Source: Escherichia coli (GTDB lineage: Bacteria; Pseudomonadota; Gammaproteobacteria; Enterobacterales; Enterobacteriaceae). From it: a stretch of DNA of 64,000 nucleotides. Location: NCBI RefSeq assembly GCF_051903065.1, contig NZ_CP178438.1; one strand, written 5' to 3'. Position numbers: made by a program. Shown piece by piece: positions 3,001 to 9,000 of the stretch. The number at the start of each line of letters is the position of its first letter. Position 1 is the stretch's first letter.

Positions 3001-6000
3001 GTAACCTGATCGGTATTTTTAAGGCCTTCGCCTACATTCCAGTCAGCAGCAAGCAGGCGAGAGTCAATCAGGCGACGGCGGGTTTCCGCTTCATCAATAG
3101 AGAGAATATCGGCAACATGCTGGTTACGCGCTCTGGCTTCATTCAGGCGTTGAGTGAGGTGTTCGGCCTTTTCCTGTTCTTGCTGTAGTGCGCGTTGCAG
3201 CGCCAGTTCGCGCTCACGGCTTTCATCCTGAGCCCTGATTGCATCTTCCAGACGTTTTTCATCTGCACGACCTGAAGATTGTGTTAATGGAGGGAGTGTA
3301 AATTTGGGGCAGTCATCAACATTACCGTGGGCGTAGCGAACATACAGCCAAATTCCCAACAAATACGCTTCTTTGAGCAGCCAGTAAGTATCTTTAGCTT
3401 TGATACGTCCGCCGTGCGCGGCACGGTTGCCATGGATACGCAGCGCATCCATTTTCATGATGATGGCTTCCGGCATCATGCTGGTAAAGACATCAGCATT
3501 CATTAAATCGTAAAGATTAGCCTTAATACCTTCCGGCAACCGCTCCTGACGATACAACCAGCGCACCATCAATTCGGTGTAGTTGCGCAGCTTGACCAGA
3601 CAACTTTCCGGATCGGAGTGAACATAGCGTTCCGCCATACACGCGAGTTCAGCCAGTTCCGGCCACTGGCTGCGCAACATTTCAAAATTGAGAGACTGCT
3701 CCATCAATCATCGCCTTATGTCGTGGATACAACAGCATTTCTGGAAAGAATATCACACTAATTTGGCCGACGAAGTGAGCCGGATGGCATATGGTGGTGA
3801 TGTGTTTAACGACATAACTGCTCTAACGGTCAGATCCTTGGTTTTCGCCCATCAATGGGCATCTTCAGCCATGGCTACTCACAGGATACCTTGCTAACCA
3901 ATGAAGGTATGGCTGATCATCTATGGGATATGTTTTTTGAGCCAATAAAACGATGGAGCTTTTCTCCAAGTTCATCATTAATGAATTTTGTTTCAATGCA
4001 TTAATCAACTCTTCGCATTTTCGCTATCTTTTATCCACTTCCCTTTTGAAAAGGTGGGTATCTACGTTACCAATACTGGTTTAATGGCTACATACGGCGG
4101 TCCGTTTACGCTTACGGTAAAGATAAGCGATAAGCTCCCAGCGCTAGGACCGGGAGCTCTGCATAGCTACCACCATTTAGGATAGTCGTTAAAAGCACGT
4201 AATATTGATTGCCTGGCAGCAGGCATCAAGCTTTTCACTTCCTTTTGAAAGGGAGATACCACCATTGATATCTTCCTTCATACATGACCAATTCAGCACA
4301 CCAGCGACTGGATATGGCGGGAAATGGTGGCCCGGGGGTTACAGGCAGTGAAACCATCGTCAGGGATGCTGTTGCCAAATGGCGTAAAGGCTGGAACCCA
4401 CCAGTTACTACTGCCGCCAGACTTCCTTCAGTGTCCCGGGTAAGCCGCTGGTTGATGCCCTGGATAATAATCAGGGGTGAAGAAAATTATGCTTCCCGAT
4501 TTATTAGTCTGATGTGTGAAAAAGAACCGGCGCTGAAAATAGCGCAGCAACTAGTACTTGAGTTCTACCGTATTCTGAAAACCCCAAATAAATCAAATCT
4601 AAGCAGTTGGTTCACTCGAGTCCACGAAAACGGTTCAGCAGAACTTCGGCGCGTGGCTGCGGGGATGGAAGCTGATGCTGCGGCTATATGTGAGGCAACC
4701 AGCAGCCGCTGGAGTAACGGTGTTGTCGAAGGTCATGTAAATCGCCTGAAGATGCTGAAACATCTGATGTATGGTCGAGCCGGATTTGAACTACTTAGGC
4801 AGAGGGTAATGAGTCCACTGGCATGAAAATCTCCACCTAGGTTGCGGAAGAGCCACTTTTGCACCGTTCGTGATAATACCGTAAATAAGCCTCTGAAAGT
4901 TATAGGATATGACACAACTAAAGAAGTCTGTGTGAACCGCGTAATACCAAGTGAATTGCTTGTTATATCTGTTTAATTAAACCTAATCGACCAGCCTTAC
5001 TGGAGAGGCTGGTTAGTGATTAACTGGGAGTATTGCAATTAGATGTGTTCTACAGGCCCACGAAGGTAGATGGCTGCCAGAGTTCATCTTCGCGTGTAAA
5101 AGACTCTTAGTTGATTAATTCTAATTTATCGATCTATTACGCGATCATAATATTCGATGATTTGCAGTGCAACAGCAGCAATTTGTACTGCTTCCTCCCT
5201 ACTGGTACCGGCTGCTTTACCACCAAAACGATCATGGAGGACAGCCTGATGAAATTCTCCCACCTCTTCTCCGAGAATCGCTCCCCAGATAAAAGGATCT
5301 TGATTACGGTCTGCCCCCCATTTGGCATCCTGCCGTTGCATTTCCGCTAGCACGTCAGACAGGGCTTTAGTGTCTTGATGTTTACCTTTCATGTTTCCCT
5401 TACGAATCCGTGATTTTAAGTCCATCATTAACATTTAATATGTGCAGAGTCCATTAATTCGCTACATCTCATTTTGTGAATGAGCGTTGAGTTTGCTATA
5501 AACGTAGCAACCAAGAAAAATAAAAGTGGATAATTTTGTTCATTACCTTTCAAAGCAAGAAGTTAAGGACTATTTGCGAGAGTATGCATGAGGCAAATGA
5601 GATCTTTGGTGACAAAGTGGCATCAAGACTACGCTCGCGACTTTCCGATCTTTCCGTGACAGACAACATATTACTGTTGCCCGTAGGTTCGCCGGAGGTC
5701 TGCTTTGAGGATGGGGAAGAGTGTATTACAATTACCATTCTCGGTGATGTAAAAATGGGATTTGTCTGTGGGAATACAGTTCAGCCCAAAAATCAAGATA
5801 ATACAATTAACTGGTCCCGAGTTAGCCGGATACGGTTAGTGTTCATAGGTGACGTGAAATGATAGTTACGCAGGACTTCCAGCCTGACTGGGTATCTCCA
5901 CCCGGTGATACAATTATAGATCTAATGGATGAACATGGGCTTTCTGGTGAAGAACTGAGTAAGAGGATTGGATTGTCTCTTATCCGGGGTCAGCAACTTC

Positions 6001-9000
6001 TTGAAGGAAAAATCCGACTCAATGAGTCTCTGGCTTGTAAGCTTGAGGAGTTATTCAACGTATCGACAGACTTCTGGATCAAGCGCGAAGTCGCTTATCG
6101 CCAGCAAATTGGATACCTCGAGAAAGTGAATAATGATTGGCTCGAATCATTGCCTGTACGTGATATGATGGAGTTTGGTTGGATCCCCAAAACTACAACT
6201 CGGGAAAGTAAATTCCAGCACTGCCTATCGTTTTTCGGAATAAATTCCGTCAATGATTTTTTTTATAAAATTCAGTCAGATGCTCCTTTGGTCGCTTTTC
6301 GTAAATCTCTTAATCTGGCAACCGAGCCTATGGCCGATTTGGTGTGGCTGACTAGGGCTGCACAACTTACCTCAAACCAAAACTGTGCTGTATGGGATAA
6401 AGAGGGGCTGATAGCATTGTTGCCAGAACTGCGCAAAGCTACAAATGAACCCGACATGAGGATTTTTATCCCTTACATTCGCGACCTTCTCGCCACTGCT
6501 GGAGTTTCTCTCGTTGTGTTGCCAACGCCAAAGGGATGTCGGGCAAGTGGTGCTACCTGCTTTTTTACACCAGATCGCGCAACCCTAGTCATGAGTTTCC
6601 GTTATCTGACCGATGACCATTTTTGGTTTACGCTGTTTCATGAGATTGGGCATCTCATCTTGCATGAAGCTGTCCGAGTTCGCGTAGAAGGTAAAGATAG
6701 TCTTTCGTCGGAAGAGGAAAAGGAAGCAGATAAATTTGCCGTTGATGTTCTTATCCCAGAAGAATACCGGCAGCAACTTAGTCGCTATGGTGTCCGGCAT
6801 TGGAAAGAGATCATCCGGTTAGCTAGGAAAATGGGGGTATCCAAAGGGATCGTACTGGGATATTTGCAGCATGAAGGTAATATACCTTTTTCTCACCTTA
6901 ATCGGTTTAAAGTGAGATTCCGTAAAGAAGATATCGTCTGATATCAGCCGCCGAAATAGACATAACGGTCAGGTGATTTCTGCCAGTTGCACAACGCATC
7001 TTCAATAACCTGCATTCTCAAGTAGGGTGCAGGAATAATTGCCGCAAGGTCAGCTAGTTTTTCATTCAATACGTCTATTGTGTCACCAGCAGTCCGGCTA
7101 TTGCTGAAAAGTAGCCGGCTTCCTTGAAGGGGCCCGGTTGCTCCATTCAGAAAAGCATGACCCGGCTCTACATCCAGAAGTCCCGTTTTCTTGAGCATAG
7201 TTAGGTAATCAAATTTTGCGGTTCGTCCAAATGAGATCACGGCATTTAGCCCTGAATACAATAGTTCGAATAAAGATTCTGGTGAAGATGAAAAGCTCTT
7301 GGCCTCTGCAAACCTAGCCTCATGACTGTGTGTAGCACCAATGAATCCGATGTAAGAGCGAAAAACCGCAGGTATTGAACGACGAGAGTGATATTTCTTC
7401 GTTTCATATTTCCGATGGTTACCATATTGTCTTAGGCTACTGTTAGCTGTCAACTCATCAGAGACGCTGGCGAACCATTGTTCAAAAGCAGCAAAGTCAT
7501 CAGTTATCGTATCCCATGTCCACGTTTGTGTACCGAGTCCACTGTATATATCTCGACACAAAATCCAGCCGGTTTTGTTACTCTTGCCGAAATGTGTGGC
7601 AAGGAAAACCAGCCAGCAGGCTTCATCGTAATTGTTGTCACGAAGATAAAGGCAGGCAGCGCGGAGAGGATCAAAAACATCAGAATTCGGCTCTTTTCGT
7701 AACGGAGTCATATAATCGGTCCGTAATGCAAGAGTTTCCACATAGCGTATACGACGTATACTGTCGATAATCTGACAGGCTAAAACATCAAAGCAGGCAG
7801 GAGAACTTAGGCCATTTAGGTTGTGTTCATTGCGGCTAAAATTTTGCAAATTACTAACCAGCTGACTGATTTGATTATGTCTTTTCATTGTAGTCTTCCT
7901 TCAAAAATAAACCGATATTCCTGATTTTTCATTGCAGCCAACTCTTGGAAGGCTAGTCCTTTGTGGTTGGGTGTATGTGAACGTAACAAAAAGTGGATTT
8001 TTAATATACGCAATAAATCCTTCCAGTAGTCATTCAAGGAAGTAGTGTCAATATCAAATTCCTTATTCTCTCGAAGAGCTTTTTCTGCCTCAAGCAGGGG
8101 TAAGATATCATCTAAGGAATGCATTTCAGGCATCGATCCCATGACTGGTAGGGTGCTCATGAACCCCTCTTTCTGAAGAGCCTTCACTTTTTCTAAATCA
8201 TTTTTATAGAGATGTAGGCTGGATACAAAGTGATGATAGTGACCCAATTCGCATCCTATCAAGCGGGCAACTAATTCCTGTAGCATCGTGAACGCAAATA
8301 CATCATGAGGCAGCCCCATAAAGGCATCGTTAGAACGCATACAAACAAATAGATGCAGCTCTTCACATCTGACAATAAACTGCATAGATATTGTACAAGG
8401 AATATCTACGTATTCTCGCTGTTCAGTTTTTGAGGGCACCAAGTCTGAGGCATCGAAAAGCTGTATTACTGCACGTCTGGTAGGTTTTTTCTCCTGCAAA
8501 AGGTTGATAACATTTTTTAGCTGATTATATAAACCACGCATATTAAACAACCGTGGCCCGTAACCACCATGTATTTTCCCATCTGACTCAGCGGATTCAG
8601 CGTAACGTGGTATGAAGTGTTTTATAAACTCAAGATCGTTCTGAGCTGAGAGATACCACAGAAATTCACCTAAGCAACTAATTAGTTTTCCTCGGGATTC
8701 TGTTCTACTTATTCTTCGGCGGGGGTCGGTAAGGACAAGATAGGCACCAAGAATCTCTAGAGTTGATCCTTTTGTAGGATCGTTACTGAGTCCATCCGCT
8801 AGGATAGCTTGATGAACATCGTTTATCAGATCGTCAACACACTCAGCCGTTACCAAAAGAGTCATTTTCTACCTTTTCCTGTATGGTAGTAACTAATCAT
8901 TACCACCTGTATGGCATATAGTCAATATAGTATCAATATCAACATGGTTCACAGGGTAAGTAAGACTTGATCTTACCCAGCAATAGTGGACACGCGGCTA

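Follow-up and report, generated by a model that had tools for sequence, protein, structure and literature searches.

The window analyzed here, 64,000 nucleotides (nt) of Escherichia coli chromosomal DNA (NCBI RefSeq assembly GCF_051903065.1, contig NZ_CP178438.1), carries on a chromosomal island a compact gene cassette formed by two operons that meet tail to tail. One operon encodes a ThyA-family protein of the deoxycytidine monophosphate (dCMP) hydroxymethylase type (ThyA-like), followed by a clade-3 aGPT-Pplase that resembles amino-acid:DNA transferases (aGPT-Pplase3). The other encodes a small HigB-like protein, followed by XRE-M78, which joins an XRE-type helix-turn-helix (HTH) domain to an ImmA/IrrE (M78) zinc metallopeptidase. 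The unit is a four-gene cassette, extended in Enterobacterales by a fifth, MazG-like gene, and it is horizontally mobile and unusually rigid in its tail-to-tail architecture. The reading that we favor, with modest rather than firm confidence, is that it is an infection-controlled defense cassette that converts deoxycytidylate to a C5-modified form.

Conservation and architecture of the cassette

To survey the distribution of the cassette, peptide patterns of aGPT-Pplase3 were run against 100,044 species, each represented by a single genome; this returned 215 loci, and the best 80 were analyzed. The taxa represented include Alpha-, Beta- and Gammaproteobacteria, Planctomycetes, Chloroflexi, Terriglobia/Acidobacteria, Myxococcales, Methylacidiphilales and several genera of Bacteroidota. 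A second sample, 24 contigs from the viral collection IMG/VR with predicted prophage contigs among the carriers, brought the combined set to 104 loci. By tblastn, the ThyA-like gene lies directly upstream of the aGPT-Pplase3 gene in 76 of the 80 genome loci, and the XRE-M78 gene is convergent with it, adjacent and downstream in 77; three of the four misses in the first case and two of the three in the second fall at contig ends. The XRE-M78 gene is also convergent and adjacent in 23 of the 24 viral-collection loci, and all 24 keep the cassette layout.

A query-independent clustering of all neighboring open reading frames (ORFs) in 85 loci gave the same picture of membership. The aGPT-Pplase3 cluster is present in all 85, XRE-M78 in 81, ThyA-like in 74 and HigB-like in 67, followed by a 270-residue accessory gene in 32, integrases in 10, a gene of about 100 codons in 10 and the MazG-like gene in 4. 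No other cluster occurs in more than 6 of the 85 loci, and the remaining six-locus cluster includes the IS3 transposase of the window. The four genes stay linked down to about 37% identity while their surroundings change. The protein of about 100 residues found beside the cassette in 10 loci starts with 'MAVYVDNVRIPWRG...' (L047:8839-9144, L056:8773-9135, L061:2781-3092 and seven more survey loci) and has no match in NCBIfam or PADLOC.

The point at which the operons meet is itself conserved. In the window the convergent stop codons of the XRE-M78 and aGPT-Pplase3 genes are 2 bp apart (6939-6946), and across many bacterial groups 74 of 81 loci have a gap of -22 to +10 bp between these stops (median 0). 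No terminator fits in such a gap, and the two transcripts must therefore overlap, which may be a regulatory device. Within the operons the genes are packed just as closely: the 3' end of the HigB-like gene runs 4 nt into the XRE-M78 gene, and the ThyA-like gene, the first of the effector operon, shares 4 nt with the aGPT-Pplase3 gene.

What kind of control might the HigB-like/XRE-M78 pair exert? XRE-M78 matches the PADLOC model for PD-Lambda-2_B (PDLC03982) almost end to end, over residues 15-341 (Table 1), with weaker matches to capP and RmrA and a weak HigA match at the N-terminus. Without exception, 79 members of its family share H261-E262-x-x-H265, H269 and E287. PD-lambda-2 is a validated E. 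coli defense system (Vassallo et al. 2022) in which protein B, an XRE-peptidase, is toxic alone and is neutralized by the HigB-like protein A, and in which a third protein, C, related to the P4 phage antitoxin, is required for defense (PMC9519451). The cassette resembles this system in the match to B and in the small overlapping upstream gene, which holds the position that A has upstream of B. It differs in that it lacks a conserved C and carries the convergent ThyA-like/aGPT-Pplase3 operon in its place, and in that the small protein of E. coli matches no PADLOC model, PD-Lambda-2_A included. That protein also has no match among Pfam families or PDB sequences, and only one of 37 HigB-like family members touches the Pfam family HigB-like_toxin (7e-4).

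Both operons are preceded by conserved noncoding DNA. The intergenic region between the MazG-like and HigB-like genes contains the blocks TTAACATTAAAT, GAGTCCAT and TTTGCTATAAAC, conserved in E. coli, Yersinia, Enterobacter and Providencia. Upstream of the ThyA-like gene, a promoter-like TTGACT-18-AATGAT lies on the minus strand at 8925-8896, and the orthologous regions of Enterobacterales conserve ATATTGAC followed by GGTGGTAAT..GTTAC. The conserved blocks of both regions are candidates for promoter and operator elements. Two copies of CCTGTATGG upstream of the ThyA-like gene are not significant, as two matches were reached in 7 of 100 shuffles. No convincing operator common to the two promoter regions emerged, and the motifs that they conserve differ.

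Predicted chemistry of the effector operon

The closest relative of known structure to the ThyA-like protein is the CMP 5-hydroxymethylase MilA (1.6e-41, nearly full length), and thymidylate synthases follow at 1e-18 or weaker. The active site is retained, with Cys157 at the place of the E. coli ThyA nucleophile C146 and with Glu67, Arg177, His218 and Tyr220; among 70 family members the Cys, Arg, His and Tyr are present in all, and the Glu in 68. The residues that set specificity depart from those of ThyA. At the ThyA N177 position all 70 members have Asp in place of Asn (Asp188, in 'GLPHD'), and Asp at this site directs an enzyme of the family to cytosine rather than uracil (PMC5175136, the MilA structure paper). 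At the ThyA L143 position Leu is replaced by Asp154 ('VDIPC'), with Asp or Glu in 61 of the 70; an acidic residue here gives access to water and a non-methyl product, as in hydroxymethylases (PMC13326640, a 2026 study of phage cytosine modification). An ordinary thymidylate synthase was rejected because of these cytosine-type residues and because all NCBIfam equivalog scores are far under cut-off. The annotation 'thymidylate synthase' for WP_000174035.1 is misleading.

MilA itself is a guide to the sugar. It carries Ala176 and Lys133', which confer its preference for CMP, the ribose form (PMC5175136). The ThyA-like family instead has deoxyribose-type residues at these positions, Ser178 in all 70 members and Arg130 in 62, with Lys in the remaining 8, and a ribo-specific enzyme of the MilA type was rejected on the basis of this Ser/Arg pair. 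Judged from these residues, the most likely substrate is dCMP, and the product would be 5-hydroxymethyl-dCMP (hm-dCMP).

The second gene of the effector operon encodes aGPT-Pplase3, which, in addition to its own Pfam family (Table 1), matches the ADDT profile PF18724 (1.1e-58). In its motif E296-D297-A-L-C300-N301-W302-Q303-K304, all residues other than A and L are invariant in 26 diverse homologs (E296, D297, C300, N301, W302, Q303 and K304). The motif aligns with 'EtvLCkWK' of gp51 from phage M6, the E and C included, at a weak hhalign score. In M6 gp51 a Cys and a neighboring Glu are indispensable, and the proposal is that this pair attacks a 5-(phospho)hydroxymethyl pyrimidine in DNA at C6, which lets an amine or hydroxyl add at the C5 methylene (PMC8989533). 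The protein database searched contains about 3,900 relatives of aGPT-Pplase3, and a relative is encoded in at least 215 species-representative genomes; relatives are also found on 10 plasmids, actinobacterial and Leptospira plasmids among them.

In other species, 32 of the 85 clustered loci (about 38%) have an extra gene of about 265-270 codons between the ThyA-like and aGPT-Pplase3 genes (e.g., L027:9204-10004). Its product has no match in Pfam, NCBIfam, PADLOC or PDB sequences and was identified by fold search only: the model, with a predicted local distance difference test (pLDDT) score of 93.8, has a TDG/MUG/UDG-superfamily fold, and Foldseek matches it to human TDG at 6.5e-6. It contains a GLNPSN motif, in which GLNPS is invariant and which resembles the motif with the catalytic Asn of TDG. 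This modeled TDG/MUG-like accessory protein favors a DNA-level step for the cassette, with modified pyrimidines in DNA.

Proposed mechanism and competing explanations

How might the four proteins act together? The gene identities, the catalytic and specificity residues, the architecture, the distribution and the genomic context come directly from the sequences; each biochemical step and the defense role itself are deduced from them. In the mechanism that we infer, the HTH-peptidase, itself restrained by its small partner, would repress or otherwise restrain the system, and infection or DNA damage would release it, by analogy with ImmA/IrrE- and CapP-type proteases. The ThyA-like enzyme would then turn dCMP into hm-dCMP, and the Cys/Glu pair of aGPT-Pplase3 would take either hm-dCMP or 5-hydroxymethylcytosine (hmC) in DNA to a further C5-substituted cytosine. 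The outcome would be the loss of usable dCMP/dCTP, aberrant cytosines in replicating phage DNA, or both. The anti-phage dGTPase and dCTP deaminase reportedly described by Tal et al. in 2022 as nucleotide-depletion defenses are one point of comparison. Like them, the cassette may remove a deoxynucleotide, and a dGTPase that matches the PADLOC model is its neighbor in the window; it differs in that it would use C5 one-carbon chemistry and not hydrolysis or deamination, with depletion one possible outcome.

The setting of the cassette is consistent with defense, as is the homology of XRE-M78 to PD-lambda-2 B. It is carried on integrase-bounded islands and plasmids, and its neighbors at different loci include type I restriction-modification (R-M) systems, dGTPase, Shedu SduA_C, HipA, AbiEii, Gabija/Septu-like ATPases and type IV/IIG restriction enzymes. 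As a raw count, 8 of 15 sampled loci have an immediate neighbor with a PADLOC match. The DefensePredictor study (2026) lists WP_000174035.1 as a 'predicted novel defense gene' with a log-odds of 7.6 and highlights an aGPT-Pplase-containing system that was not experimentally tested there (PMC13092281). The system validated in that study, DS-4, is a different one, consisting of thymidylate synthase, a deoxynucleoside monophosphate (dNMP) kinase, a 5-hydroxymethyldeoxyuridine (5-hmdU) DNA kinase, a TIR protein and a hypothetical protein. DS-4 and the cassette are alike as E. coli accessory systems that combine a ThyA-family enzyme with phage-like base-hypermodification enzymes. DS-4, however, has a different ThyA protein (WP_087900468.1, 361 aa), kinases and a TIR effector and, as annotated, neither an aGPT-Pplase nor an XRE-M78/HigB-like pair; unlike DS-4, the cassette is absent from the table of tested units in that paper (PMC13092281).

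Several points weigh against the defense reading. The literature searched yielded no experimental study of the cassette, and PADLOC 2.0 has no model for the ThyA-like, aGPT-Pplase3, HigB-like or MazG-like proteins. A defense-island context is suggestive and is not proof. For the ThyA-like enzyme, hydroxymethylation as opposed to methylation or hydroxylation is predicted from only a few positions. E. coli phosphorylates hm-dCMP poorly, as is known from T4 biology, which makes it doubtful that the product would enter DNA unless a phage supplies the kinase. The characterized amino-acid:DNA transferases require a 5-hydroxymethyl-base DNA kinase (PMC8989533), and the clustering of neighbors in the 85 loci found no kinase conserved with the cassette.

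A more speculative possibility is that the cassette turns phage-style hypermodification on the phage itself. Host hm-dCMP, poorly handled by host kinases, would enter phage DNA through broad-specificity phage dNMP kinases; aGPT-Pplase3 would derivatize it there, the TDG/MUG-like glycosylase of other species would excise it, and the phage genome would be wrecked, all under an HTH-peptidase switch acting through the tail-to-tail operons. A known parallel to the cassette is the thymidine hypermodification of phages M6, ViI, PaMx11 and PhiW-14, which uses a dUMP hydroxymethylase, a 5-hmdU DNA kinase and an aGPT-Pplase2/amino-acid:DNA transferase. Both combine a ThyA-family hydroxymethylase with an aGPT-Pplase, and the Glu-x3-Cys motif of the transferase is retained in the cassette. 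The hydroxymethylase of the cassette, however, is of the cytosine type and not the uracil type, its aGPT-Pplase belongs to clade 3 and not to clade 1 or 2, and it lacks the DNA kinase and has no pyridoxal phosphate, radical S-adenosylmethionine or other tailoring enzymes. The cassette is instead carried by cells, islands and plasmids, and it is coupled to the protease/HTH control pair.

An unlikely alternative to the defense reading is a route like that of MilA and MilB in mildiomycin biosynthesis, confined to the nucleotide level. The ThyA-like enzyme would make hm-(d)CMP, and aGPT-Pplase3, with its glycosylase fold, would release or transfer 5-hydroxymethylcytosine, giving an antimetabolite or an irreversible sink for dCMP. 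MilA is by far the nearest solved relative, the absence of a kinase fits a nucleotide-level pathway, and mildiomycin/bacimethrin biosynthesis is described as a hydroxymethylase step followed by an N-glycosidase (PMC4081090). The Ser and Arg at the ribose-selecting positions, however, argue for a deoxy substrate, and the characterized relatives of aGPT-Pplase are DNA transferases, not glycosidases (PMC8989533). The partner in the cassette is an aGPT-Pplase and not an N-glycosidase of the MilB type. A TDG/MUG-like DNA glycosylase in 38% of the loci argues for a step in DNA, and neither an antibiotic cluster nor any other biosynthetic gene is conserved with the cassette.

It is also improbable that the cassette modifies self DNA. 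On that view it would equip host or mobile-element DNA with a hypermodified cytosine, much as phages treat their own DNA, to serve as an epigenetic mark or as a shield against restriction, and it would not be an anti-phage weapon. The enzyme families are those of phage DNA hypermodification pathways, the islands, plasmids and predicted prophage contigs that carry the cassette would suit such a role, and marks of this kind could be edited by the accessory TDG/MUG-like glycosylase. A tblastn search of 50,697 phage genomes, however, gave no match for aGPT-Pplase3, which in this respect differs from clades 1 and 2. The conserved genes of the cassette do not include a dNMP kinase, a DNA kinase, a dedicated polymerase, or a modification-dependent or modification-sensitive nuclease partner. 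The partner that is conserved, a protease/HTH pair of toxin-antitoxin character with homology to a defense component, is more in keeping with an activity that is conditional and probably harmful than with a constitutive mark.

The MazG-like gene, the dGTPase and the surrounding island

The Enterobacterales form of the cassette, 3.9 kb with the MazG-like gene and about 3.4 kb without it, raises the question of what this fifth gene contributes. It is transcribed divergently from the HigB-like/XRE-M78 operon and has no Pfam or NCBIfam match. In its family of 67 clusters, E42, G45, E67 and Q70 never vary, and at least 90% of the members keep E43 and E46. The first motif, EExxE, is present as E42-E43-V-G-E46, and the second reads E67-x-x-Q70 in place of ExxD and aligns to the ExxD of SSO3215 and YpjD. 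Profile matches to these two proteins in the PDB are weak (E 0.5-0.7). The AlphaFold2 model (pLDDT 92.8) is all-alpha, with three long helices, and its top Foldseek matches are the MazG-like pyrophosphatases YpjD, AF_0060 and HisN2, statistically weak at E of at least 0.1 in every case.

The MazG-like gene occurs in 4 of the 85 clustered loci, all in Enterobacterales, and is absent from about 95% of cassette loci; by tblastn it was found in 1 of the 80 genome loci (Enterobacter). Carriers are E. coli (two alleles), Yersinia, Enterobacter, Providencia and two metagenomic contigs. All examined cassettes whose aGPT-Pplase3 is at least 60% identical carry it, and those at 50% identity or less lack it. 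Within Enterobacterales the MazG-like and ThyA-like genes are inherited as one block, in at least five genomic contexts. Further MazG-like copies at 55-70% identity reside in three prophages, one of them P2-like and one lambdoid, and in CBB/GAP32-group jumbo phages; none has a ThyA partner. In a neighbor-joining tree the cassette-linked copies form one clade, with the phage and prophage copies outside it. The MazG-like gene as a core component was rejected on account of its rarity and its phage and prophage relatives without a cassette; from these sequence comparisons it is a real, lineage-specific accessory, traced to a single capture of a phage-type gene followed by co-inheritance.

Two observations concern the phage copies themselves. 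The MazG-like domain of the jumbo phages is surprisingly close to the E. coli protein (70-73% identical by tblastn; L090:4992-5606, L091:3992-4282), and in gene CBB_130 of Pectobacterium phage CBB it is fused to a C-terminal DUF7768.

In Enterobacterales the MazG-like protein might either feed dCMP from dCTP or clear modified dCTP. This would recall the T-even hmC pathway (gp56 dCTPase, gp42 dCMP hydroxymethylase, gp1 dNMP kinase and glucosyltransferases), which the cassette resembles in the Asp residues at the N177 and L143 positions and, in Enterobacterales only, in having a small all-alpha pyrophosphohydrolase candidate beside the ThyA-like gene. It differs in lacking a dNMP kinase and a glycosyltransferase, and most cassettes lack the MazG-like gene. 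Among ThyA-family proteins of known structure, the ThyA-like protein is closest to MilA, and the 60 best such matches listed do not include T4 gp42.

Beyond the cassette and an IS3 element lies a dGTPase gene, which a sequence-only reading of this stretch had singled out together with the MazG-like and ThyA-like genes. The dGTPase-family identity holds (TIGR01353, 316 bits against a cut-off of 152; PADLOC dGTPase, 1.5e-109), although the score against NF041026, antiphage_dGTPase, is 284 bits and under its cut-off of 400. No dGTPase occurs near the cassette in the 80 genome loci or in the 24 viral-collection loci. Of the E. coli genomes, 317-343 carry the dGTPase region and 231-256 carry the cassette. 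Strain ET450 has a 79.5%-identical cassette with the MazG-like gene beside a tRNA-Leu integrase and another type I R-M system, and neither IS3 nor dGTPase is present at that locus. Conversely, strain 10_253 lacks the cassette but keeps HsdR, the ISL3 remnant, the dGTPase and the same IS3, which there abuts a 3' stub of the MazG-like gene, an arrangement that looks like an IS3-mediated adjacent deletion. The triplets flanking IS3 in the window, 'act' and 'cat', do not form a clean 3-bp target duplication, and a repeat search found no inverted repeats; its ends are imperfect and were read by eye. The dGTPase as a member of the module was rejected on its co-occurrence of 0 in 104 loci, its absence from ET450 and its retention where the cassette is lost; it is an independent gene in the same island, a separate and known kind of defense gene.

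The sequence-only reading had grouped the three genes and raised the possibility, argued from the MazG-like and ThyA-like pair, of one module for the conversion or clearance of cytosine nucleotides, like the T-even pairing of a dCTPase with dCMP hydroxymethylase. Much of its description stands: the three ORFs, the type I R-M neighbor and the IS3 element are real (Table 1), the ThyA homolog is of the cytosine and deoxy type (MilA nearest, with Asp188, Asp154, Ser178 and Arg130), the acidic EExxE motif of the MazG-like protein is retained on alignment next to a second motif that reads ExxQ, and all three genes lie within 6.5 kb. The co-occurrence check that it had called for gave a divided answer. 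The MazG-like and ThyA-like genes do travel together, in one Enterobacterales subclade, but most cassettes do without the former and the dGTPase never accompanies them, so that the trio as a cluster is a one-off arrangement of this island. That reading also passed over the three genes between the MazG-like and ThyA-like genes, namely HigB-like, XRE-M78 and aGPT-Pplase3, which are the near-universal partners of the ThyA-like gene. A three-gene module is accordingly a poor prospect. Least probable is a toxin-antitoxin addiction module in which the HigB-like/XRE-M78 pair merely stabilizes the island and the ThyA-like/aGPT-Pplase3 operon is unrelated nucleotide-salvage cargo; the pair does resemble HigB/HigA-type modules and sits in a mobile-element context, but unrelated cargo would not persist in four linked genes whose 3' ends abut or overlap in many bacterial groups.

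The cassette and its neighbors are listed in Table 1. Many complete E. coli genomes match bases 4900-9100 at 100% identity, and 231 of 5,426 genomes contain 80% or more of this segment. In the identical E. coli DNA, RefSeq labels three of the genes 'MazG-like family protein', 'thymidylate synthase' and 'dGTP triphosphohydrolase family protein'.

Table 1. Features of the cassette and its flanks in the window
Feature	Position	Strand	Basis or remark
HsdR, type I R-M system	291-3707	-	
ISL3-family transposase remnant	4284-4826	+	reduced to the C-terminal part, NF033550 4.8e-28; separates the type I R-M genes from the cassette
MazG-like, 88 aa, WP_032153698.1	5126-5392	-	phrog_24212 3.8e-37
Divergent intergenic region, MazG-like gene / HigB-like-XRE-M78 operon	5393-5535	.	
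HigB-like small protein, 108 aa, TTG start	5536-5862	+	
XRE-type HTH + ImmA/IrrE (M78) zinc metallopeptidase, 360 aa	5859-6941	+	PADLOC PD-Lambda-2_B 8.7e-30
Clade-3 aGPT-Pplase, amino-acid:DNA-transferase-like, 314 aa, WP_000820616.1	6944-7888	-	Pfam PF18746 5.5e-90
ThyA-family, dCMP-hydroxymethylase type, 326 aa, WP_000174035.1	7885-8865	-	Pfam PF00303 6e-25
Upstream region of the ThyA-like operon, from start codon to IS3 end	8866-8967	-	
IS3 element	8968-10224	+	ends read from sequence; annotated IS3 family transposase
dGTPase-family protein, WP_000271619.1	10345-11577	+	TIGR01353 316 bits

In ET450 and in Providencia the cassette lies between a tRNA-adjacent integrase and a type I R-M system with a DUF4268 gene, a recurring layout that resembles the pairing of the cassette with type I R-M genes in the window. 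Farther along the window, a P-fimbrial locus survives in part at about 11900-13500. The identical RefSeq region has a PapA fragment, an adhesin-biosynthesis regulator and a PapI/FaeA-family regulator there, cut short by a fragment of the ISCR2 (IS91-like) transposase. From about 13500 to 24000 the G+C content rises from about 0.40 to more than 0.60; comparison with strain 2-1, which has an identical region, identifies it as a multiresistance region inserted in the chromosome, with an ISCR2 fragment, DUF3363, floR, a LysR-family gene, tet(A)/tetR(A), aph(6)-Id, aph(3'')-Ib and sul2.

The cassette has been predicted computationally by others and is uncharacterized, and it is best seen as a variant among the nucleotide-targeting candidate defenses. 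It is directly testable, being compact, native to E. coli and with a ThyA-like protein already flagged by DefensePredictor. If the defense reading is true, the cassette, a cellular system that pairs a dCMP-hydroxymethylase-type enzyme with a transferase family associated elsewhere with phage DNA hypermodification, would add C5 one-carbon chemistry on cytosine to the known defenses that hydrolyze, deaminate or chain-terminate nucleotides, and it would provide the first function for the clade-3 aGPT-Pplases.

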